Shown in pieces: positions 1 to 33,283 of a stretch of 64,000 nt of DNA. The stretch lies in assembly GCA_963766735.1 (NCBI GenBank), contig CAVYBU010000002.1:128001-192000 (forward strand), given 5' to 3'. Each line of letters starts with the position of its first letter. Position 1 is the first letter of the stretch. Source of the stretch: an uncultured Chloroflexia bacterium (GTDB taxonomy: Bacteria; Chloroflexota; Limnocylindria; Limnocylindrales; CSP1-4). A model generated the notes under the pieces. It saw only the letters and a list, made by a program, of their open reading frames with translations, made no database searches and had not been told where the DNA came from. The position numbers and the translations under genes are program-made.

Positions 1-1131
1 CTCGCGGGTCTCGCGGTCCTTGACGAATTCCACGCCGATCATCAGGCCGGGCCCGCGCACGTCCCCGATCATCGGGAAATCCGCCATCAGCTCGCGCAGG
101 CCCCCGCTGAGCTCCGCGCCCCGTCCCCGGGCGTTGGCGACCAGGTCCTCGTCCCGGATCGTCTCCAGGACGGCCACGCCGGCCGCGCAGGCCACCGGGT
201 TGCCGCCGTACGTGGTGCCGTGGGCGCCGCGGCCCCACCGCTCCTGGAGCGCCTTGCTGGTCACGATCGCCGACAGCGGCAAGCCGTTCGCAATCGCCTT
301 GGCCACGCAGACCACGTCCGGAATGATGTCCGCGTGCTCGAACGCCCACATCTCGCCGGTCCGCCCGTAGCCCGACTGGATCTCGTCCGCGATCAGCAGG
401 ATCCCGTGCTCGTCGCAGATCGCGCGCAATGCCCTCAGGAACGCCGCCGGGGCCGGGTAGTAGCCGCCCTCACCCTGGACGCACTCGATGATGATCGACG
501 CCACCTGGGACGGCGCGACCGTGGTCGCCAGCAGGTCGTCCAGGTGGGCGAGGCACGCCTCGGTTGCCGCGGCCGTGTCGTCATCGAAGTCCCGGTAGGT
601 GGCAGGAAACGGGAGCTGGTAGATCGACGGCAGCAGCGGCTCGTAGCCACGGCGGTAGTTGAGCGAGGAGCTGGTGATGCTGGTGGCGCCGATCGTCCGT
701 CCGTGGAACGCACCCCGGAACGCGATGATCGCCGGGCGCCCCGTGGCGCGCCGCGCGAGCTTGAGAGCGCCGTCGATGGCCTCCGAACCCGAGTTGAGGA
801 AGAGGACGGTGTCCAGCGGGTCTGGGAACGTCTCGGCCAGCATCCTGGCGAGGGTGACCGTGGACTCCGCGAAACCGATGGCGTGGACGGGGCCGATGAG
901 GCGATCCACCTGGGCGTGGATGGCCGCGGTCACGCGCGGGTGTGTGTGCCCGAGCGCCGTGACCGCGATGCCGTTGGCGAAGTCCAGGTAGCTGTTGCCG
1001 GCGGTATCGAACAGGCGGTGGCCGATCCCGTGGGACCAGCTGCGGTCCATGTACCGGCCGAGCACCGGCGACATGTTGGGGGCCGCCAGGGCGGCGAGGT
1101 CGAGGGCGTCGGAGGCGTCGTTGGTGTCCAC
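1..1131 (-). CDS. Class III PLP aminotransferase (GABA/ornithine aminotransferase-like), 3' end runs off the window
   Basis: Manual minus-strand translation from GTG 1131: ...YLDFANGIAVTALGH...FLNSGSEAIDGALKLAR...AFRGAFHGRT...ADEIQSGYGRTG...AKAIANGLPLS. TATACT lies 6 nt upstream. Confidence 0.9.
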   Translation of the reverse strand, partial: MDTNDASDALDLAALAAPNMSPVLGRYMDRSWSHGIGHRLFDTAGNSYLDFANGIAVTALGHTHPRVTAAIHAQVDRLIGPVHAIGFAESTVTLARMLAETFPDPLDTVLFLNSGSEAIDGALKLARRATGRPAIIAFRGAFHGRTIGATSITSSSLNYRRGYEPLLPSIYQLPFPATYRDFDDDTAAATEACLAHLDDLLATTVAPSQVASIIIECVQGEGGYYPAPAAFLRALRAICDEHGILLIADEIQSGYGRTGEMWAFEHADIIPDVVCVAKAIANGLPLSAIVTSKALQERWGRGAHGTTYGGNPVACAAGVAVLETIRDEDLVANARGRGAELSGGLRELMADFPMIGDVRGPGLMIGVEFVKDRETRE

Positions 1132-25114: not shown

Positions 25115-26350
25115 ATGGAACAGTCGAGCGGACCCAACGGCAACGTCTATCTCGTCAGCGCCGCGCGCACCCCGATCGGAAAGTTCGGCGGCGCGCTCGC
25201 CGGCGTCCCCGCCACCGAGCTCGGCGCCACGGCGATTCGCGCCGCTGTCGATCGGTCGGGCCTGGCCGGCAACGCGCCCTTGGACGAGGTCATCATGGGT
25301 CAGGTCCTCGGCGCCGGGTCCGGGCAGGCGCCCGCCCGCCAGGCGCTGCTGCGGGCCGGCCTCGCGGACACCACCCCCGCCACCACGATCAACCGCGTCT
25401 GCGGATCGGGCCTGAAGGCGATCATGTTCGCTGCGGCCGGCATCCGCGCGGGTGACGGCGACCTGTACGTCGCGGGCGGCATGGAGTCCATGAACCAGGC
25501 GCCGTTCCTGCTCCGCAAGGCGCGGTTCGGGTACCGGCTGGGGCAGGGCGCCCTGGACGATTCGGCGGTCCTGGACGGGCTCTGGTGCGCGGTCGAGGAC
25601 TGTCACATGGGTACCCACGCCGAGCGGGTCGCGATCAAGTCGGGCGTGAACCGGGAGGACCAGGACGCGTTCGCTCTCGGGAGCCACCAGAAGGCAGTTG
25701 CCGCGCAGGACCAAGGCCGGTTCGACGCCGAAATGGCCCCGGTGACGATCCGCGACGCGAAGGGGCGCGAGACGGTGATCTCCGTGGACGAGGGCCCGCG
25801 GCGCGATTCGACCGCCGAGGCACTGGCCCGCCTTGCGCCGGTCTTCGACCTGCCGACGGGAGAAGATCGCGGGAGCGCCACCATCGGGACCGTGACCGCC
25901 GGCAACGCCCCTGGCATCACGGACGGGGCCGCGGCCGTGGTCGTGGCTTCTGAGCGAGCCGTGGAGCGGCACGGGCTGGCGCCCCTTGCCCGGGTGGTCG
26001 GCTACGCGCAGGCCGAGGTGACGCCGAAGTGGCTGTTCCTTGCACCTGTCGCGGGCGTCCGGGCGCTCGAGGCGAAGACGGGACTGGCCGTGGACGACTA
26101 CGACCTGATCGAGGTCAACGAGGCGTTCGCGGCGCAGGTCCTGGCGGACGGGCGAGAGCTTGGCTTCGACTGGTCGAAGGTGAACGTCAACGGTGGCGCG
26201 ATCGCGCTCGGGCACCCGATCGGGGCGAGCGGTGCGCGGATCGTGGCCACGCTGCTCCACGAGCTGGGGCGGCGCGGCGGGCGGTACGGGCTGGCCACGC
26301 TCTGCCTGGGCGGCGGCGGCTCCGTCGCCATGGCGCTCGAACGGGTCTGA
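25115..26350 (+). CDS. Acetyl-CoA C-acetyltransferase (thiolase)
   Basis: [27 protein letters not shown] and LCLGGG motifs. Confidence 0.95.
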
Positions 26351-26462
26351 CGGCCACGGCCAGCGCCGACCCCTGCCGCCACCCGCCGGGCTCAACACGC
26401 GGAGGTCGATCGAACATGGCGCCGCGTCCCGGCGCGAACTTGCGCTATCCTTCCGCCGGTCC

Positions 26463-26537
26463 GGGCCGGTAGCTCAACGGTAGAGCAAGTGACTCTTAAT
26501 CACTAGGTTCAGGGTTCGAATCCCTGCCGGCTCACCA
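26463..26537 (+). tRNA. tRNA-Lys(CTT)
   Basis: Acceptor stem GGGCCGG/CCGGCTC, anticodon arm AGTGA-CTCTTAA-TCACT, T-loop GGTTCGAATCC, encoded CCA end. Confidence 0.96.
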
Positions 26538-26852
26538 TTCCTGGACCCTCTCCGCCTGTGCAGCCGACCCTGGCGCCCCTGCGCCCGATGGCGGCTTGGC
26601 ACCGGATCGCCACCATCCGCCGCAGCACCGGGCATGACCACGCATGGGTCCGCCATGCCGTCAGGCAGGGCCGTTGGCCTCCATCCGGGCCCGATCGAGG
26701 GGCCCTTCGCCACCCTCTGCGGCGACCTCTGGTAGGGGTGGAGTCGACCCGCGTCGGCGATCATTGGTACCGGCGTCCCCTTGATCGCGTCGCAGCCGGC
26801 GCGGGCAACGCGTGTGCCTGCACCCTGCGCCGTAGCGCTATAGAGGGTCGCG

Positions 26853-28064
26853 ATGGGCGAGGACGGTCTGTACGCCGCACTGGTGCGGCGCGGGATGTCC
26901 CGCCGGTCGTTCCTCCAGTTCTCGACGGCGATGGCTGCCGCCCTTGCGCTCCCGGCCACCTACGCGCCGCGAATCACCGCGGCCCTCACCGTCGCGCCGC
27001 GCCTGCCCGTCATCTGGATCCGCGGCCAGGGCTGCGGTGGCAACACGGAGGCCTTCATGCGGGCCGCCGACCCGTCCGTGGCCACGCTGCTGCTCGAGAC
27101 GCTGTCGATGGAGTACCACGAGGCGTTCCTGGCCTCCGCGGGCGACTCGAGGGACCTGATCCTCGCCGACGCCATGGACCGCTACCCGAACGGGTACCTC
27201 GCGGTTGTCGAGGGTGCCGTGCCCACCGGCGCCGGCGGTGCCTACTGCCTGGTGGGCGGACGCCCCGTGGGAGACGTCGTGCGCGAGGTCAGCGACGGCG
27301 CCCTGGCCACGCTGGCCGTCGGCTCCTGTGCGTTTGATGGCGGCGCCGCGGGGGCCAGCGGGGGCCAGACCGGGGCCGAAGGCATCCGGTCGCTGGTCGG
27401 CAACGGGCAGCTGATCACCTTGCCGGGTTGCCCCCTCAACGTGGAGAACCTCGTCGCGACGATCGTCCACTACCTCACGTTCGGCGAGCTGCCGCCGGCG
27501 GATCCGATGGGCCGGCCCCTCTTCGCCTACGGGCCCCTCGTTCACAACAAGTGCGAGCGCCGGCCGTTCTTCGAGTTCGGCGAGTTCGCGCTCGCGTGGG
27601 GCGACGAGGGGGCCCAGAAGGGCTGGTGCCTGTACAAGCTCGGCTGCAAGGGCCCAGAGACGATGGCCAACTGCCCGACCGTCAAGTACGGCGACGGGGT
27701 CAGCTGGAACGTCCGGGCCGGCCACGGCTGCGTAGGCTGCACGATGCCGGACTTCTGGGATGCGATGGGACCCGCCTACGACCGGCTCCCGCCGGTGATC
27801 CCGTTCCTGCCCAACATCACGGCCGACCAGATCGGTGTGGCCATGGTCGCGGGTGTCGGGGCGGTTGCCGCGGCGCACGCGGTGGGCATGGGCGTCCGCT
27901 ACAAGCGTCGCGCGGTCCTCGAGAGCCGGGCGGCCGCCGCCCAGGCGGCCGAGGGAGCCGGCGAAGCTCGTGCCGATGACGCCGGAGCCGCCGGTGCCGG
28001 AGACATGGCCAACGCCGGCGTCGAAGACACGGCCAGCGGCGGCGCAGACCCGGAGGCGCGCTGA
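26853..28064 (+). CDS. hyaA: Group 1 [NiFe]-hydrogenase small subunit with Tat signal and C-terminal anchor
   Basis: MSRRSFLQF Tat motif; GCGGNTE, GSCA, PGCP, HNKCER, WCLYKLGCKGP and GHGCVGC motifs; C-terminal TM helix ending in AAH. Confidence 0.92.
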   Translation: MGEDGLYAALVRRGMSRRSFLQFSTAMAAALALPATYAPRITAALTVAPRLPVIWIRGQGCGGNTEAFMRAADPSVATLLLETLSMEYHEAFLASAGDSRDLILADAMDRYPNGYLAVVEGAVPTGAGGAYCLVGGRPVGDVVREVSDGALATLAVGSCAFDGGAAGASGGQTGAEGIRSLVGNGQLITLPGCPLNVENLVATIVHYLTFGELPPADPMGRPLFAYGPLVHNKCERRPFFEFGEFALAWGDEGAQKGWCLYKLGCKGPETMANCPTVKYGDGVSWNVRAGHGCVGCTMPDFWDAMGPAYDRLPPVIPFLPNITADQIGVAMVAGVGAVAAAHAVGMGVRYKRRAVLESRAAAAQAAEGAGEARADDAGAAGAGDMANAGVEDTASGGADPEAR

Positions 28065-28065
28065 C

Positions 28066-29841
28066 ATGGCCCGCGTCGTGATCGATCCCGTCACGCGGGC
28101 CAGCGGCCATCTGCGCATCGAGGCGGACGTCTCGGGCGGCGCGGTGGCCGAGGCGTGGACCTCCGCCACGATGTTCCGGGACCTGGAGACGGTCCTGCGC
28201 GGACGTGACGCCCGCGACGCCTGGCTTCTCGCGGAGCGCATCTGCGGAACGTGCACCAGCGTCCACGCGCTTGCGTCCGTGCGCGCTGTGGAGAACGCCC
28301 TCGGCATCGACATCCCCACCAACGCCCGCCTGATCAGGAACATCCTGGCGTCGACCCAGCTGGTCCGGGACCACGTGCTCGGGTTCTACGTGACCCAGGG
28401 CCCGGACTGGGTCGATGCCAGGTCCGCGCTCAAGGCCGATCCGGTCGCCACTGCCCGCCTCGCGCGCGAGACCAGTTCGCGGCCGCAGTCCGGTCCCGAG
28501 CACCTCACGAGCGTCCGCGACAGGCTTGCCGCGGTCATCGACTCGGACCAGCCCGGCATGTTCGCGGGCGGCCCGTGGGGCCACCCGGCCTACCAGCTCA
28601 GCCCGGAGCAGAGCCTGCTTCTGCTGGCGCACATGCTCGAGGCGCTGGATTGGCAGCAGTCATTCATGCGGATCCACGCGCTGCTCGGCGGCAAGGATCC
28701 CCACCCGCAGACGTACGTCGTCGGCGGGATGGCGCTGGCGCCGCCCTGGGGCGGACCCAACCCGCCCCTGACCCGGGAGCACCCGATGGTCCCGGACCAC
28801 AAGGCGCCGGTCGCCCTGAGCGAGGCCGGGATCGCCATGATCGATGACCTGATCGCGAAGGGGCGGGCCTTCGTCGAGCAGGTGTTCGTGCCCGACGTGC
28901 GCCTCCTCACTGCGGCCTACCCGGAGTGGGGCGCGCTGGGCGCCAGTTCGGGCGACTACCTGTCCTGGGGTGACTATCCCCTAGGGGACGGCAAGGATCC
29001 AGCTCTGTTCCTTCCGCGCGGGCGTGTCTCGGGCGGCAACATCAACCTTGGGCTGGAGGCCGAACCGGACCGCGTGGCCGAGACCGTGACGCACGCCTGG
29101 TACACCTACACGGGCGGTGACGCGGCGCTCCTTCGACCGTCCGAGGGCGAGACCGTGCCCGCGTGGTCCGGGCCCCCTCTGCCTCTGGAGACCCTCGACG
29201 GCGCGGCCAAGTACTCGTGGGTCAAGGCCGCACGCTACGACGGCAAGCCCGTCGAGACGGGGCCCCTCGCCCGCACGCTCGTCGGGATCGCGAACGGCCA
29301 GTCGGAGATACGTGAGGGGCTGGCCATGCTGCTCGAGGAGACAGGCCTCGACGTCGAGGTCATGCCGAGCGTCCTGGGGCGGATGCTTGCCCGGGCGCTC
29401 GAGGCCCAGGTCCTGGCCCGCCAGGCAGCCACCTGTCTCTCGGAGCTCAAATCGAACCTCGCCACGGGCGACGTCGCGGTAGCGGACCTGTCGTTCTGGG
29501 AGCAGGGGTCCTGGCCCTCAGAGGCCGAGGGCCGCTCCATCGGCGAGGGGCCGAGGGGAGCCGTTGGCCACTGGGTGCGCATCCGTGACGGCCTGATCGA
29601 CGCCTACCAGGTGGTGGACGGGAGCACCTGGAACACCTCGCCGCGAGACGCGATGGGCGGCCGCGGCCCCATCGAGACCGCCCTTGTCGGCACGCCGGTC
29701 GCCGACCCGTCCCGCCCCCTGGAGATCCAGCGCGTCGTGCATTCGTTCGCGCCGTGCGCCGGCTGCGCCGCCCACCTGTTCGATCCGCGGGCGGTCGGCC
29801 CGCTCGAGATCCGCGTCCGCGCGGGGGAGAGGACCCGATGA
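28066..29841 (+). CDS. hyaB: Group 1 [NiFe]-hydrogenase large subunit with divergent active-site residues
   Basis: L1 ERICGTCTSVH, L2 HSFAPCAGCAAH plus a cleavable tail; KYSWVKAARY and EGPRGAVGHW motifs. Confidence 0.92.
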   Translation: MARVVIDPVTRASGHLRIEADVSGGAVAEAWTSATMFRDLETVLRGRDARDAWLLAERICGTCTSVHALASVRAVENALGIDIPTNARLIRNILASTQLVRDHVLGFYVTQGPDWVDARSALKADPVATARLARETSSRPQSGPEHLTSVRDRLAAVIDSDQPGMFAGGPWGHPAYQLSPEQSLLLLAHMLEALDWQQSFMRIHALLGGKDPHPQTYVVGGMALAPPWGGPNPPLTREHPMVPDHKAPVALSEAGIAMIDDLIAKGRAFVEQVFVPDVRLLTAAYPEWGALGASSGDYLSWGDYPLGDGKDPALFLPRGRVSGGNINLGLEAEPDRVAETVTHAWYTYTGGDAALLRPSEGETVPAWSGPPLPLETLDGAAKYSWVKAARYDGKPVETGPLARTLVGIANGQSEIREGLAMLLEETGLDVEVMPSVLGRMLARALEAQVLARQAATCLSELKSNLATGDVAVADLSFWEQGSWPSEAEGRSIGEGPRGAVGHWVRIRDGLIDAYQVVDGSTWNTSPRDAMGGRGPIETALVGTPVADPSRPLEIQRVVHSFAPCAGCAAHLFDPRAVGPLEIRVRAGERTR

Positions 29842-30647
29842 CCGCCACCCCGAACACCCTGCGGGGGACGACGGCCCCCGTCGATGTCCCGGCCCCGGCC
29901 GACCCGGAGGCTGCGCCTGGCGCTCCGGCACAGGCGGCCCACGAGATCGACCGGCCGCACGAGCGCGTCCGCCTCTACATCTGGCAGGTGCCGGTGCGGG
30001 TGACGCACTGGGTGACCGCCGCCTGCATCGTCATCCTGAGCGTCACCGGGCTGTACATCGCGGACCCGTTCCTGGTCCCGCCCGGCGGATCGGTGATGTC
30101 GACGATCCGGCTGCTCCACATCCTGACCGCGCTCCTCTTCCTTGTCTCGGGGATCATCCGCACCTGGTGGCTGCTGGCCGGGAACCGGTTCTCCCGATGG
30201 TCCGCATTCATCCCTACCTCCAAGTTCCAGGCAACCGAGCTGTTCCGCCAGGCGGGCTTCTACGGGTTCGTCCGCAAGGAGATCCCCAAGGTGCTCGGCC
30301 ACAACCAGCTGGCCGCGACCGCGTACCTCGTGCTGTTCGCGCTGCTGCTCGTGGAGACGGTCACCGGCTTCGCTCTCGACGGGCTCATGGGCACCGAGCC
30401 TGGCGCCACGCTCTTCGGCTGGATGCGCGAGCTGTTCGGCCCGCAGATGCTGCGCCTCGTCCACCACCTCGCCATGTACGCGATCCTCGCAATCGCGCTG
30501 TTCCACATCTACAGCTGCATCCTGGTCGACCACATCGAGAGCAACGGGCTGATCTCCAGCATCGTGACGGGCTCCAAGTTCCCGACCCGCGAGGAGATCG
30601 TGGAGTCCCGCGACGGCGGCCCCGAGATGCTGGAGAGGGCGGAATGA
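29838..30647 (+). CDS. hyaC: Ni/Fe-hydrogenase b-type cytochrome subunit
   Basis: YIWQVPVRVTHW, RLLH, GHNQLA and RLVHH...FHIY heme ligands. ATGA overlap with the large subunit gene. Confidence 0.92.
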   Translation: MTATPNTLRGTTAPVDVPAPADPEAAPGAPAQAAHEIDRPHERVRLYIWQVPVRVTHWVTAACIVILSVTGLYIADPFLVPPGGSVMSTIRLLHILTALLFLVSGIIRTWWLLAGNRFSRWSAFIPTSKFQATELFRQAGFYGFVRKEIPKVLGHNQLAATAYLVLFALLLVETVTGFALDGLMGTEPGATLFGWMRELFGPQMLRLVHHLAMYAILAIALFHIYSCILVDHIESNGLISSIVTGSKFPTREEIVESRDGGPEMLERAE

Positions 30648-31186
30648 TCGCAACGGGCCCGGCCGTCGTTCTCGGGGTGGGCAACGTGCTGCTCCGCGAC
30701 GACGGCGTCGGTGTGCGCGTGGTCCAGGAGCTCGCCCGGCTGACGGCGGACGACCCGCGCGCGGTGCCCAGCGGCACGCACCTGGTGGATGGCGGGACTC
30801 TCGGCCTGGACCTCCTCCAGGCCGTGCGCGGCGCTCGCTCGCTGCTGCTCGTCGATGCGGTGAACCTGGGCCGGGCGCCCGGCACCGTCAGCGTCCTGCG
30901 TGGGCAGGCGATCACCGCGTCCTGCGTGGGCGGGGCGATCCCCGGCGGCGTGGGCGAGCTGCTGGGCATGGGTCGGCTGATGGGATGGCTGCCGGATCAC
31001 GTGACCCTCCTCGGCATCGAGGCGGGCGACACCGGGACGGGGGTCGGCCTCTCGGCCTGCGTTGAGGCGGCCGTCCCGACTGCCGTGGAGATGGCTCGCG
31101 TGGAGCTCCGCGCGCTCGACGAGCTCGCACCGGCTGGGAGGTCGGAGGCGCCGGCGGTCCGGCTGAAGGAAGGGGCGGCGGCATGA
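30644..31186 (+). CDS. hyaD: Hydrogenase maturation protease
   Basis: LGVGNVLLRDDGVG, VDGGTLG and LVDAV motifs. The usual SxH metal ligand is absent. Confidence 0.88.
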   Translation: MIATGPAVVLGVGNVLLRDDGVGVRVVQELARLTADDPRAVPSGTHLVDGGTLGLDLLQAVRGARSLLLVDAVNLGRAPGTVSVLRGQAITASCVGGAIPGGVGELLGMGRLMGWLPDHVTLLGIEAGDTGTGVGLSACVEAAVPTAVEMARVELRALDELAPAGRSEAPAVRLKEGAAA

Positions 31187-31905
31187 GACGCAGGCTTGAC
31201 AGGACGCTGCGCCTGCTCATCGCGATGAACCTGATCGTGGTCGCCCTGCTCGCGTTGACCATGGTCGCGGGCTGGATGAAGGTCCTGCCGTCGGTCGGCG
31301 GCCCAACGCCGGCCACCTCCGACGCGCCGGCGGCCACCCCGGAACAGATGGAGATGGGCCTCGCCCATATCCCGACGTCCAGCAGCTGCCTGCTCTGCCA
31401 CGAGGCGGGTGGCGCCAGCGGGGTCAAGGTCATCCCGGCCATTGGCCACCCGCTGGAGGGCTGGGGGGCCTGCCTGACCTGCCACACGGACGACAAGCTC
31501 GGCCGCAACGCACCCGGTCACAAGGACATTGCCCAGACCGAGTGTGTCAACTGCCACAAGGTGGCCCAGGAGGGCCCGTCGATCACCCAGGCCCACGCAG
31601 ATCTGCACGAAGCGTGCTTTGACTGCCACGGCTCCGTGGCGCACCTCCCGTCCAGCATGGTTGGGCGCAACCAGGACGAGTGCTGGCTCTGCCACAAGCC
31701 GAACCCGGCCCCGCCGCCCACGAGACCGCATCCGGAGCCTGGGCAGCTGACATGCCGCGCCTGCCACCAGGCAGCAGACGCTGGCGCCTTGCCGATCGAT
31801 CATGCGCTGCGGGCGGACTCGAGCTGCCTGCTCTGCCACAACATCCGGGCGACGTCGGTCGAGAGCTCGTCCGAGGTCCCGTCCGCGAGCCCGTCCGGGG
31901 GCTGA
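31183..31905 (+). CDS. Membrane-anchored multiheme cytochrome c (7 CxxCH)
   Basis: N-terminal TM helix, then CLLCH, CLTCH, CVNCH, CFDCH, CWLCH, CRACH and CLLCH. Confidence 0.9.
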   Translation: MRRRLDRTLRLLIAMNLIVVALLALTMVAGWMKVLPSVGGPTPATSDAPAATPEQMEMGLAHIPTSSSCLLCHEAGGASGVKVIPAIGHPLEGWGACLTCHTDDKLGRNAPGHKDIAQTECVNCHKVAQEGPSITQAHADLHEACFDCHGSVAHLPSSMVGRNQDECWLCHKPNPAPPPTRPHPEPGQLTCRACHQAADAGALPIDHALRADSSCLLCHNIRATSVESSSEVPSASPSGG

Positions 31906-31985
31906 TCGGGTCCATCCTGCGCTCTCGCCGTTGGCCCCGGGCGCTGGACCCGACCGGTCGTCCGCGGATGGGCGATCATGGGGGC

Positions 31986-32441
31986 ATGCAGAACATGCTC
32001 ACCGTCTCCTGGGAGGATCTTGACGGCCTGGTCGCGGGGCTCGCCACCGCTGTCGGCCGTGATCACGACCTCGTCCTCGCGATCACGCGCGGAGGCCTCG
32101 TCCCCGCCGGGATGCTCGCCTACCGCCTGAACCTGCGGGAGATCCTCGTCGTCGGAGCGGAGTTCTACCGCTCCGAGGGCGGCACCCACCCTGCGCCGGT
32201 CATCGGCCACTTCCCGGACGCCTCGCTCCTCGCGGGCCAGCGGGTGCTGGTCGTGGACGAGGTCTGGGAAACCGGCGAGACGATGGCAGAGGTCATGGCG
32301 AGGGTCCGAGCAGCCGGGGGCACGGCCGTCTCCGCGGTGATCCACTACAAGCCGGGCCGGTCCCGTGTCGCGGCTGTCCCGGACCACTGGGCGGCAACCG
32401 CGCATGACTGGGTGACGTACCCCTACAAGGCGGGTGGCTGA
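31986..32441 (+). CDS. Purine phosphoribosyltransferase family protein (Gpt-like)
   Basis: AITRGGLVPA and VLVVDEVWETGET PRPP-binding loop; WVTYPY. Confidence 0.88.
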   Translation: MQNMLTVSWEDLDGLVAGLATAVGRDHDLVLAITRGGLVPAGMLAYRLNLREILVVGAEFYRSEGGTHPAPVIGHFPDASLLAGQRVLVVDEVWETGETMAEVMARVRAAGGTAVSAVIHYKPGRSRVAAVPDHWAATAHDWVTYPYKAGG

Positions 32442-32503
32442 GCGGCGCACCCGGGCCGCCACGCTGTCCTGATCATCCTGTCGTTCCCACAGGGGAGATC
32501 CTC

Positions 32504-33283
32504 GTGACCACACCTCGAACCACCTCACGTCGCGGCCCGATCCTGGGGGTCGCCCTGATCGTTGTCGCGGTCCTCGGCGGGGCCGCCCTCTGGTACGTCT
32601 TCTTCCGGCCGTCGGGTCCGCCGCCCGTGTCGCTCGGGTCGATGGCGCCGGCAACCACGGTGCCGGCCGGCAGTGCCGCCGTGGGCTCCGGTGCGAGTGC
32701 CGGGACCGGAGGCTCGTCCGGCCAGACGTTCGAGGGGATCTGGACCACCGATCCCACTGCTTCCTCGACCTCGGGGCCTGCCACCTTCGTGGGCTACCGG
32801 GTCCGCGAGGAGCTGGCCAATATCGGGGCGACCGAGGCCGTCGGCCGGACGTCCGACGTGACCGGCTCCCTAACGATCGAGGGGACCACGGTGACGAAAG
32901 GCGAGTTCACGGCTGACCTCACGACGCTCCAGAGCGACAGCGGCAACCGCGATCGGCAGCTCTCGCGCCAGGCCCTCGAGACGGCGACCTACCCGGAGGC
33001 GAGCTTCACGCTGACCCAGCCGATCGAGCTGGGCACGGAGCCCGCCGAGGGTGAGGTCGTCGAGGTCACGGCGACCGGAGACCTGACCCTCCACGGCGTG
33101 ACGAAGTCGGTTCAGGTCGCCCTGCAGGCCCGCCGGGAAGGCGAAACGATCGCCGTCGCGGGCTCGGTGCCAATCGCCTTCGCCGACTTCGGGATCCAGA
33201 AGCCGCAGGCGATGGCGGTCCTCTCGGTCGAGGATCGCGCCACCGTGGAACTGCTGATCCACCTCGTCCCCTGTTGCGGCTGA
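32504..33283 (+). CDS. YceI family protein with an N-terminal membrane anchor
   Basis: VGYRVREEL...LQSDSGNRD, TGDLTLHGVTK and FADFGI motifs. Confidence 0.88.
   Translation: MTTPRTTSRRGPILGVALIVVAVLGGAALWYVFFRPSGPPPVSLGSMAPATTVPAGSAAVGSGASAGTGGSSGQTFEGIWTTDPTASSTSGPATFVGYRVREELANIGATEAVGRTSDVTGSLTIEGTTVTKGEFTADLTTLQSDSGNRDRQLSRQALETATYPEASFTLTQPIELGTEPAEGEVVEVTATGDLTLHGVTKSVQVALQARREGETIAVAGSVPIAFADFGIQKPQAMAVLSVEDRATVELLIHLVPCCG

Follow-up and report, generated by a model that had tools for sequence, protein, structure and literature searches.

The 64,000-nucleotide stretch analysed here, called the window below, covers positions 128,001 to 192,000 of contig CAVYBU010000002.1 from an uncultured Chloroflexota bacterium (assembly GCA_963766735.1). 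It contains an operon for a [NiFe]-hydrogenase whose large subunit has kept its metal ligands and exchanged many of the residues around them. The enzyme represents a real, conserved and apparently undescribed variant lineage of the group-1 [NiFe]-hydrogenases, which arose once from canonical enzymes of the same bacterial family and is held under purifying selection. To judge from its residues and its gene neighbourhood, we think it rather probable that this is a working, membrane-bound, H2-oxidising group-1 enzyme, exported by the twin-arginine translocation (TAT) system, in which the proton exit has been rerouted and a second exit for electrons has been added.

Residue changes in the large subunit

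The features discussed are listed in Table 1. The large-subunit translation (P0001, the query) matches PF00374 along the entire profile (positions 1-508 of 508), scoring 554.6 bits where the cut-off is 25.8, and carries the motifs DPVTRASGH, ERICGTCTSVH, DHVLGFY, EGPRGAVGHW, YQVVDGSTWN and HSFAPCAGCAAH. Residue correspondences were taken from an alignment of the query with Escherichia coli HyaB (L007, the large subunit of hydrogenase 1, Hyd-1; 41.7% identity) and with the second copy from its own genome. Query residues are given below in three-letter code where they are set beside Hyd-1 numbers, and positions discussed for the lineage follow Hyd-1.

Table 1. Features of the hydrogenase operon and its surroundings, in window coordinates
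Feature	Position	Strand	Remarks and evidence
Small subunit	26853..28064	+	403 aa, TAT signal, C-terminal hydrophobic anchor; PF14720, PF01058, TAT_signal
[NiFe]-hydrogenase large subunit, P0001	28066..29841	+	591 aa, single open frame; PF00374
Ser13 codon AGC	28102..28104	+	Position of proton-gate Glu (Hyd-1 E28); alignment
Thr62	28249..28251	+	Gas-channel gate Val (Hyd-1 V78, Desulfovibrio fructosovorans V74); alignment
Remnant of His-rich motif HxHxxHxxHxH	28366..28398	+	R101 D H V L G F Y V T Q111
17-residue insert, PPWGGP...EHP	28741..28791	+	Residues 226-242, after the GGM motif; alignment
EGPRGAV	29545..29565	+	Pendant Arg497 (R509) retained; Gly495 for Ala, Val500 for Leu
Asp518-Gly519	29617..29622	+	Replaces Val-Pro of VVP(S/T)TWN; lineage hallmark
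Ala562	29749..29751	+	Canopy Asp574; alignment
C-terminal His570 and 21-residue extension	29773..29838	+	Expected substrate of the maturation protease
Cytochrome b subunit	29838..30647	+	269 aa; PF01292, 91.5 bits; tblastn with E. coli HyaC, E 1.6e-20
Hydrogenase maturation endopeptidase	30644..31186	+	180 aa; PF01750, 57.4 bits; TIGR00072, 108.6 bits
Membrane-anchored heptahaem cytochrome c	31183..31905	+	240 aa; 7 CXXCH motifs; last, translationally coupled gene
Two genes 3' of the operon (phosphoribosyltransferase-domain, YceI-family)	31983-32438 and 32504-33283		No functional link evident

The metal ligands are all present, with C60, C63, C564 and C567 corresponding to C76, C79, C576 and C579 of HyaB, and H582 is retained as His570. 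Both the translation and the HyaB alignment thus confirm an earlier sequence-only reading of this window, which had stated that the four metal cysteines are intact and had listed several altered motifs, including the Ser13 and Ala562 codons. Relative to Hyd-1 the substitutions are E28S, V78T, H122G, L126T, A507G, L512V, V530D, P531G and D574A; D118 (Asp102), R509 (Arg497), H119 (His103) and E458 are unchanged. The assignments that had been made for E28, D574, V530/P531, A507, L512 and the retained canopy arginine hold in the alignment. Four changes go beyond that list. Threonines stand at both gas-gate positions, Thr62 at V78 and Thr110 at L126 (L122 of D. fructosovorans); the His-rich motif is down to one histidine, with only Asp102 and His103 (D118 and H119) left; and there is a 17-residue insert, with Trp228 and His239 invariant, that is missing from every canonical sequence compared.

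Of these changes, Asp518 is the hallmark of the lineage and is predicted to be a new buried carboxylate. Residue 530 and the VVP(S/T) strand, together with A507, P508, R509 and L512, presumably line the CO/CN pocket, as in the Desulfovibrio structures; literature searches found no source for residues 507-512 and 530-532 lining it.

The closest solved structure by sequence is 3MYR_B (E 2e-148, 498 bits). An AlphaFold2 model of the large subunit has the standard fold, with a mean predicted local distance difference test score (pLDDT) of 83.4 and a predicted template-modelling (TM) score of 0.87, and in a Foldseek search 3MYR_B was again the best match (TM 0.87/0.92, 43% identity). In the region of the insert pLDDT falls below 50. 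Scores stay far below the cut-offs of all NCBIfam equivalogs, including those for Hyd-1 (NF007550, 448.1 against 1101 bits) and Hyd-2 (NF007778, 440.5 against 969 bits).

The changes cannot be credited to sequencing or assembly error in a metagenome-assembled genome (MAG), an explanation to which we give no weight: the same residues recur in the 94%-identical locus L008 and in every member of the lineage, from many sources, and independent DNA contigs from other runs agree with the window at 99% or more, as do 11 of 15 contigs from run X1. At position 29566 one X1 contig (depth 4) is one base short where other runs match the window, and this gap is probably an error in that contig. The sequence-only reading had argued against error on other grounds, namely that several of the changes each need more than one base substitution. 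This is correct for Pro to Gly (GGG), which takes two steps, and for Ala562, whose GCG differs from both Asp codons in two letters, but not for Asp518, whose GAC is one step from Val GTC, nor for Ser13, whose AGC is one step from Gly GGC, glycine being the usual residue at position 28 within the variant lineage. The codon argument is in any case moot, because identical states recur in 134/134 lineage members.

A single origin within the Chloroflexota

The comparison set consisted of 134 variant-type and 40 canonical large subunits, including those read from related genomes and loci; the two groups were set by positions 28, 530 and 531, so that counts at those positions are circular. At position 28 the variants have Gly (114), Asn (13), Asp (4) or Ser (3) and never Glu (0/134, against 40/40 canonical). 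Position 530 is Asp in 134/134 variants and Val in 38/40 canonical sequences, and position 531 is Gly (72) or Ala (62). Position 78, which is Val in 40/40 canonical sequences, is Thr in 121/134 variants and small or polar in 132/134, the exceptions being one Leu and one Val. Ser503 is found in 131/134 variants, Gly507 in 122/134 and Val512 in 125/134; the gas-gate Leu has become Ala, Arg, Ser or Thr, and N227 is Asp in 93%. Among the residues kept are R509 (128/134), D118 and H119 (133/134 each), E458 (134/134), the four cysteines (132-134/134) and the C-terminal His (132/134).

Position 574 is more varied, with Ala in 72 variants, Asp in 23, Asn in 20, Ser in 13 and other residues in 6. The earlier proposal that D574A is a defining feature could not be upheld, since 23/134 members retain Asp574 and its loss occurred at least four times within the clade; what defines the lineage is the absence of E28 combined with V530D and P531G/A. 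Cross-tabulation of residue 73 (Gln to Glu/Asp) with D574 loss gave no clear link.

In a tree of 75 rows the variant clade (39 rows) has a Shimodaira-Hasegawa-like approximate likelihood ratio test (SH-aLRT) support of 100 and is nested inside canonical Chloroflexota enzymes; its sisters (L025, L026, L027) are all canonical and belong to the same family or class. With 20 hallmark columns and the insert masked, the clade (35 of 52 rows) was again recovered with support of 100. On the masked tree the loss of Glu28 and the gain of Asp530 take one change each, on the same stem branch, while loss of Arg509 takes three and loss of Asp574 at least four. The lineage has a single origin, among the canonical group-1 enzymes of its own Chloroflexota family.

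Absence of Glu28, presence of Asp530, Ser503 in place of Gly, a small or polar residue at 78, the insert and an arginine at small-subunit position 13 are common to members of every branch examined and are therefore assigned to the stem. The stem package also includes the change of Val-Pro to Asp-Gly/Ala and the gain of a heptahaem cytochrome gene. The crown group, to which the query belongs, further lost Asp574, the His-rich motif and the acidic residue at small-subunit position 16, which backs the E28 relay, and took on A507G, L512V and N227D. The first-branching subgroup (P0106 type), recovered from independent metagenome contigs (L068-L077, L079, L082, L140), retains the His-rich motif, A507, L512 and D574 and has Gly at Arg509; members of the R509G subgroup (L068-L077, L082) retain the four cysteines and the heptahaem gene. 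A partial large subunit (L066:3019-3867, from G397:C129) has RVGGH and CGRC yet also HFYQLQL; its contig stops at residue 288, and the sequence resembles a basal member of the lineage or an intermediate one.

The operon and the small subunit

The genes of the operon stand in the order small subunit, large subunit, cytochrome b, maturation protease, heptahaem cytochrome c. The tight coupling noticed earlier is real: the two subunit genes are separated by a 1-nt spacer, each of the next three junctions is an ATGA overlap, and the window as a whole has 72% G+C. 

Among the loci compared, the heptahaem cytochrome gene is confined to the variant type. It lies 3' of the protease gene in 18 of the 19 variant-type loci with enough downstream DNA (the window itself, with 7/8, 4/4 and 6/6 in three locus sets), the sole locus without it being L010, a decayed copy, and it is found in 0/38 canonical loci (0/6 and 0/32 in two sets). 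All seven CXXCH motifs and seven further histidines are invariant in 12 sequences. One metagenome contig (L092) with a canonical-type large subunit has an open reading frame (ORF) with five CXXCH motifs within 2.2 kb, which is a different cytochrome. In one variant locus (L059/L023, G253:C1) the large subunit stops at the C-terminal His, without an extension, and no protease gene lies between the cytochrome b and heptahaem genes; protease and substrate extension appear to have been lost together.

The small subunit scores 360 bits against TIGR00391, above cut-off, and its TAT_signal match is 23.4 bits against a cut-off of 22.7. Ten of the 11 cluster ligands of HyaA are retained over the proximal, medial and distal iron-sulphur (FeS) clusters; the remaining one, Cys20, is Asn, as also in canonical Chloroflexota relatives. 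The supernumerary cysteines of HyaA, Cys19 and Cys120, are both Gly here. At mature position 13 a change of Glu to Arg is specific to the lineage, Arg13 being present in 11/11 genome-derived and 9/9 readable metagenomic variant small subunits. In the neutron structure of the Desulfovibrio vulgaris enzyme the contacts run from Glu34 of the large subunit to Thr18 of the small and from Thr18 to Glu16 of the small (excerpt of PMC10498676), and where the partners of the E28 relay would be the query has Gly16 and Gly18. With Ser13 on one side and these glycines on the other, the canonical proton exit is predicted to be dismantled on both subunits.

Asn or Asp, rarely Glu or Ser, stands at HyaA Cys20, a proximal-cluster ligand, in all the genome-derived Chloroflexota group-1 small subunits read (L001, L025-L049), canonical and variant, in a proximal-cluster motif C-x-G-N/D. 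This would imply a Chloroflexota proximal cluster with three Cys and an Asn/Asp. Metagenomic canonical small subunits are mixed at this position, and some retain Cys.

A scan for promoters and terminators over 26300-32600 gave no promoter-like site, and its sole terminator-like match, inside the large-subunit gene on the opposite strand, is at chance level. In the window, as in L010 and L012-L014, the gene after the hydrogenase operon encodes a phosphoribosyltransferase-domain protein. Next to it in the window is a gene of the YceI family, and look-alike ORFs (N-terminal sequence only) are present in L009 and L010.

Selection, paralogues and maturation genes

Ratios of non-synonymous to synonymous substitution (dN/dS) were estimated by the Nei-Gojobori method with our own script and carry no correction for codon bias. 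The variant large subunit gave 0.18-0.21 in 6/6 pairs (dS 0.17-0.79). The other operon genes gave 0.21 (small subunit), 0.25 (cytochrome b), 0.33 (protease) and 0.14 (heptahaem gene; 0.138), and neighbouring genes of the same genome pair 0.115-0.286, a range that contains the variant large subunit. Ten metagenomic canonical pairs spread over 0.05-0.20, overlapping the variant range, and the R509G subgroup gave 0.16-0.31 (34 informative of 36 pairs). Selection on the variant is clearly purifying, if somewhat weaker than on canonical enzymes. The sequence-only reading had suggested a distinct conserved clade rather than decay, and had proposed a search for homologues forming a clade with dN/dS below 1; just such a clade was found, monophyletic with SH-aLRT of 100.

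The genome also encodes a canonical group-1 large subunit, which that reading had thought worth looking for. It lies at G000 C3:247429-249126, is 49% identical to the query and has canonical motifs throughout (RIEGH, CGVC, HFYHLH, EAPRGAL, VVPST, SFDPC). Large-subunit-like genes on C4 (~228900-231000) and C17 (~141500-142600) of the same genome are similar to PF00374 at the two termini but not in between, and the one on C4 adjoins a HypA-like match.

The presence of the C3 paralogue raises the question of whether the variant is a redundant or decaying copy under relaxed selection, without a function of its own. Compared with the paralogue in the same genome pair its dN/dS is roughly doubled, and individual loci do look damaged: in L010 the C-terminus is scrambled, the L2 cysteines are gone and no cytochrome b, protease or heptahaem genes lie downstream, and the L015 large subunit is divided between two reading frames. 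Both loci probably represent either decay or faulty assembly. As an account of the whole lineage, however, this explanation is refuted, and we hold it very improbable for the query. A dN/dS of about 0.2 at the divergences given above is far from 1; the 134 members look intact and their new residues are invariant; the five-gene operon is conserved whole and translationally coupled, with its heptahaem gene at a dN/dS of 0.138. Moreover, the variant is the only full-length group-1-type large subunit in two relatives (G402 and G403), while four other relatives carry both types.

Maturation genes were sought by tblastn with the E. coli proteins, a check for hypA-F having been suggested at the outset. 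It succeeded for hypF, hypC, hypD and hypE, a single set of which lies on C25:72217-77153, and not in full for hypA and hypB (see below). Apart from the operon's own protease gene no extra maturation genes stand beside it, and the hypCDEF set is the only one in the genome.

Occurrence and expression

The best 120 of 6456 database matches (56-100% identity) all lack Glu28 and all have Asp530. In a library clustered at 50% identity the lineage forms one representative, with 763 bits, and the next cluster scores 556 bits. Among 401 Chloroflexota species genomes searched, variant-type genes were found in 8 of the 24 genomes of the window's family, including the window's own (G000) and the partial copy in G397. 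There was no variant among the best matches outside this family, and six weaker ones (43-46% identity) were left out of the reading. At NCBI the relatives are MAGs labelled 'Chloroflexia', 'Chloroflexi', 'Chloroflexota' and 'Candidatus Limnocylindrales'.

Metagenome runs from sediments and aquatic habitats contain nearly identical DNA: 20 rows, drawn from 11 studies, were matched, and 3 of these rows hold at least half of the sampled words. Two metatranscriptome libraries from two studies yielded short contigs, 93-99% alike, that match parts of the small-subunit, large-subunit, cytochrome b and cytochrome c genes, and one of these includes the Ala562 codon in the same form. Since metatranscriptome libraries can contain DNA, these contigs are a weak hint of expression. 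In the RNA runs X19 and X20 some stretches of the operon are uncovered, which carries no information.

The earlier suggestion that the lineage is undescribed agrees with the literature: in searches that covered papers without their supplementary files, none was found that describes it or any natural [NiFe] clade lacking the Glu, and the excerpt of a Chloroflexi-supergroup preprint does not mention it. Other cluster representatives of the 50%-identity library also lack Glu at position 28, namely P0177 (His), P0216 (Gly), P0224 (Asn), P0243 (Ala) and P0254 (Asn); none has Asp530, and by NCBIfam they are group-1a/NiFeSe- or Hyd-2-like, below cut-offs. Metagenomic sequences thus show the Glu to be less universal than published accounts hold.

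Possible proton and electron routes

In the reading that we favour, the NiFe(CO)(CN)2 site would still be inserted by way of HypCDEF and the operon's own protease, and H2 would be oxidised at the outer face of the membrane. Protons would leave through the retained Arg509-Asp118-His119-Glu458 chain in place of E28, possibly helped by the new Asp, and electrons would pass along three FeS clusters to cytochrome b and quinone, to the heptahaem cytochrome, or to both. The chain has been probed in the Hyn enzyme of Thiocapsa roseopersicina, closely related to the best solved match, in which Arg and Asp variants were inactive in vitro, a His variant kept about 6% and a variant of the chain Glu about 50% of activity, and E14Q, the equivalent of E28Q, also kept about 50% (excerpt of PMC3325256). 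From the intact Arg-Asp-His-Glu chain taken with this mutagenesis we infer a second proton route. As for the polar gas gate, hydrophilic side chains at V74 of D. fructosovorans speed reactivation after inhibition by O2 (excerpt of PMC11023054).

A different possibility, doubtful in our view, is that the mechanism or chemistry itself has changed, V530D acting as a base, as a relay or as part of an altered ligand set, with the Glu, the canopy Asp and even the Arg dispensable; the enzyme might then oxidise H2 with atypical properties or catalyse another reaction altogether. Consistent with this, Asp530 is present in all 134 members and was gained on the stem branch on which E28 was lost, and the canopy was eroded later (D574 at least four times, R509 three times), including in an R509G subgroup that has kept four Cys and the heptahaem gene under a dN/dS of 0.16-0.31. 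Around these sites the pocket changed in concert (A507G 122/134, L512V 125/134, P531G/A 134/134), the gas-gate Val became Thr and the Leu became Ala, Arg, Ser or Thr, Asp was gained at N227 (93%) and His239 and Trp228 in the insert, and selection is somewhat weaker than on canonical paralogues. Against this, the metal cysteines, the C-terminal processing signal and its protease, the FeS relay, the TAT signal and cytochrome b are all retained, and therefore the same cofactor and the same redox role are indicated. There is one hypCDEF set with no additional maturation genes at the operon, Arg509, Asp118, His119 and Glu458 are intact in the query, and the contact of residue 530 with the CO/CN pocket is presumed. 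Variants of Hyd-1 and of the Thiocapsa enzyme without the Glu are moreover partly active (excerpts of PMC10430524 and PMC3325256), so that no new chemistry is required. The sequence-only reading had raised an altered cofactor or chemistry; all parts for a normal NiFe(CO)(CN)2 enzyme are present and such a change is not demonstrated, while the Arg509-less subgroups under purifying selection leave that suggestion some force.

A more specific proposal, which we consider unlikely, is that V530D and the insert enabled a lineage without the Glu, and in part without the Arg, to use a different base or relay and to send its electrons to a surface heptahaem cytochrome. The iron-ligand environment would then possibly be changed, or the substrate a different one.

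Regulatory hydrogenases, which sense H2, have altered gas-gate residues, and a sensing rather than energy-conserving role might be considered on that account. Residues I62 and F110 at the gas-gate positions are mentioned in a review (excerpt of PMC11023054). Here, however, the small subunit carries both a TAT signal and an anchor for the membrane, genes for cytochromes b and c follow downstream, a C-terminal extension of the large subunit is matched by a dedicated protease, and profile searches found no histidine kinase or response regulator in the operon. A sensor is extremely improbable.

Several points weigh against a rerouted but otherwise ordinary uptake enzyme. The equivalent of E28 has been called 'a universal proton gate' (excerpt of PMC8020662), and its change to Gln is reported to kill activity in D. 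fructosovorans (excerpt of PMC3325256). Arg509 is Gly or Lys in 6/134 members, having been lost three times, and one R509G subgroup is under purifying selection; therefore the Arg-Asp-His-Glu route cannot hold for the whole lineage. Repeated loss of Asp574 and Arg509 under purifying selection is indeed hard to square with the textbook mechanism, and a plain uptake enzyme would need neither two polar or small gas-gate residues nor an Asp at the Val position. Within the same genome pair dN/dS is 0.181 for the variant and 0.088 for the canonical paralogue, and four other canonical genome pairs are also lower (0.045-0.10). For hypB there was no match over cut-off in a genome that is 93.85% complete, which is not taken as absence, and for hypA only a weak one (32.3 bits, C4 alone). 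Finally, both motifs in question lie in parts of the AlphaFold2 model, residues 8-14 and 565-591, where confidence drops below 50.

For two decades the debate on what Glu28, Arg509 and the canopy aspartates do in H2 splitting has drawn almost wholly on single laboratory mutants. The lineage described here is a natural multi-site experiment, in which the Glu has been removed, the pocket rebuilt and the gas gate made polar, and in side branches the Arg is gone. One expressed member would reveal which proton route a [NiFe] site can use, and also what a carboxylate near Fe(CO)(CN)2 does to spectra, catalytic bias and behaviour towards O2. The strict linkage with the heptahaem gene suggests that abundant, uncultured Chloroflexota of sediments and soils have an undescribed path for electrons derived from H2.

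Comparison with known hydrogenases

Among solved structures 5AA5, of the actinobacterial type, was matched with an E value of only 3e-25. The best solved matches belong to groups 1e and 1d, and on these grounds group 1l, which a preprint reports from the related 'Eulabeiota' (excerpt of 10.1101/2021.08.23.457424), was rejected as an assignment.

The nearest characterised enzymes, by sequence and by fold, are the group-1e Hyn hydrogenases of Allochromatium vinosum and T. roseopersicina (3MYR). These retain the Glu, the Val-Pro pair and the canopy Asp, none of which the query has. Operons of the Isp type (1e) have isp genes between the subunit genes, whereas in the query those genes are 1 nt apart and cytochrome b comes next. 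All four residues of the Thiocapsa Arg-Asp-His-Glu chain are present in the query (excerpt of PMC3325256).

With E. coli Hyd-1 (group 1d) the query shares the fold, the cysteines, the Arg, Asp118 and the cytochrome b and protease genes. The small subunit of Hyd-1 has Cys19 and Cys120 for its [4Fe-3S] cluster, while the query has Gly at both and so differs from the 1d type. Engineered Hyd-1 variants (E28Q/D, R509K, D118A, P508A) probe positions that have changed naturally here, and no engineered variant is known to combine loss of the Glu with V530D. The pendant Arg509, lost in side branches of the lineage, has been called strictly conserved (PMC10430524). The V74 and L122 gas-channel variants of D. 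fructosovorans concern the same positions as Thr62 and Thr110, but were single laboratory changes in an otherwise canonical enzyme (excerpt of PMC11023054).

A natural precedent for a changed canopy is found in the [NiFeSe] hydrogenases, in which an active-site aspartate is replaced by Ser (excerpt of PMC8020662); Ser at 118 is also present in 6/40 of the canonical sequences compared here. The [NiFeSe] enzymes keep the Glu and have selenocysteine at C576, where the query has Cys564 in an open frame with no TGA. A canonical fragment elsewhere in the data (L067, G015:C444, minus strand 1090..2) has an in-frame TGA at the second L1 cysteine (HyaB C79), which may be selenocysteine at the bridging position, a pseudogene or an error.

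The closest comparison is with the canonical group-1 enzymes of the Chloroflexota themselves, the sister group L025-L027 (48-52% identity) and the C3 paralogue. Unlike the query, these enzymes retain the His-rich motif and the sequences RIEGH, CGVC, EAPRGAL, VVPST and SFDPC, and they have no 17-residue insert, no heptahaem gene and lower dN/dS. What they share with it is an operon core of small subunit, large subunit, cytochrome b and protease, and the Asn or Asp at small-subunit Cys20.

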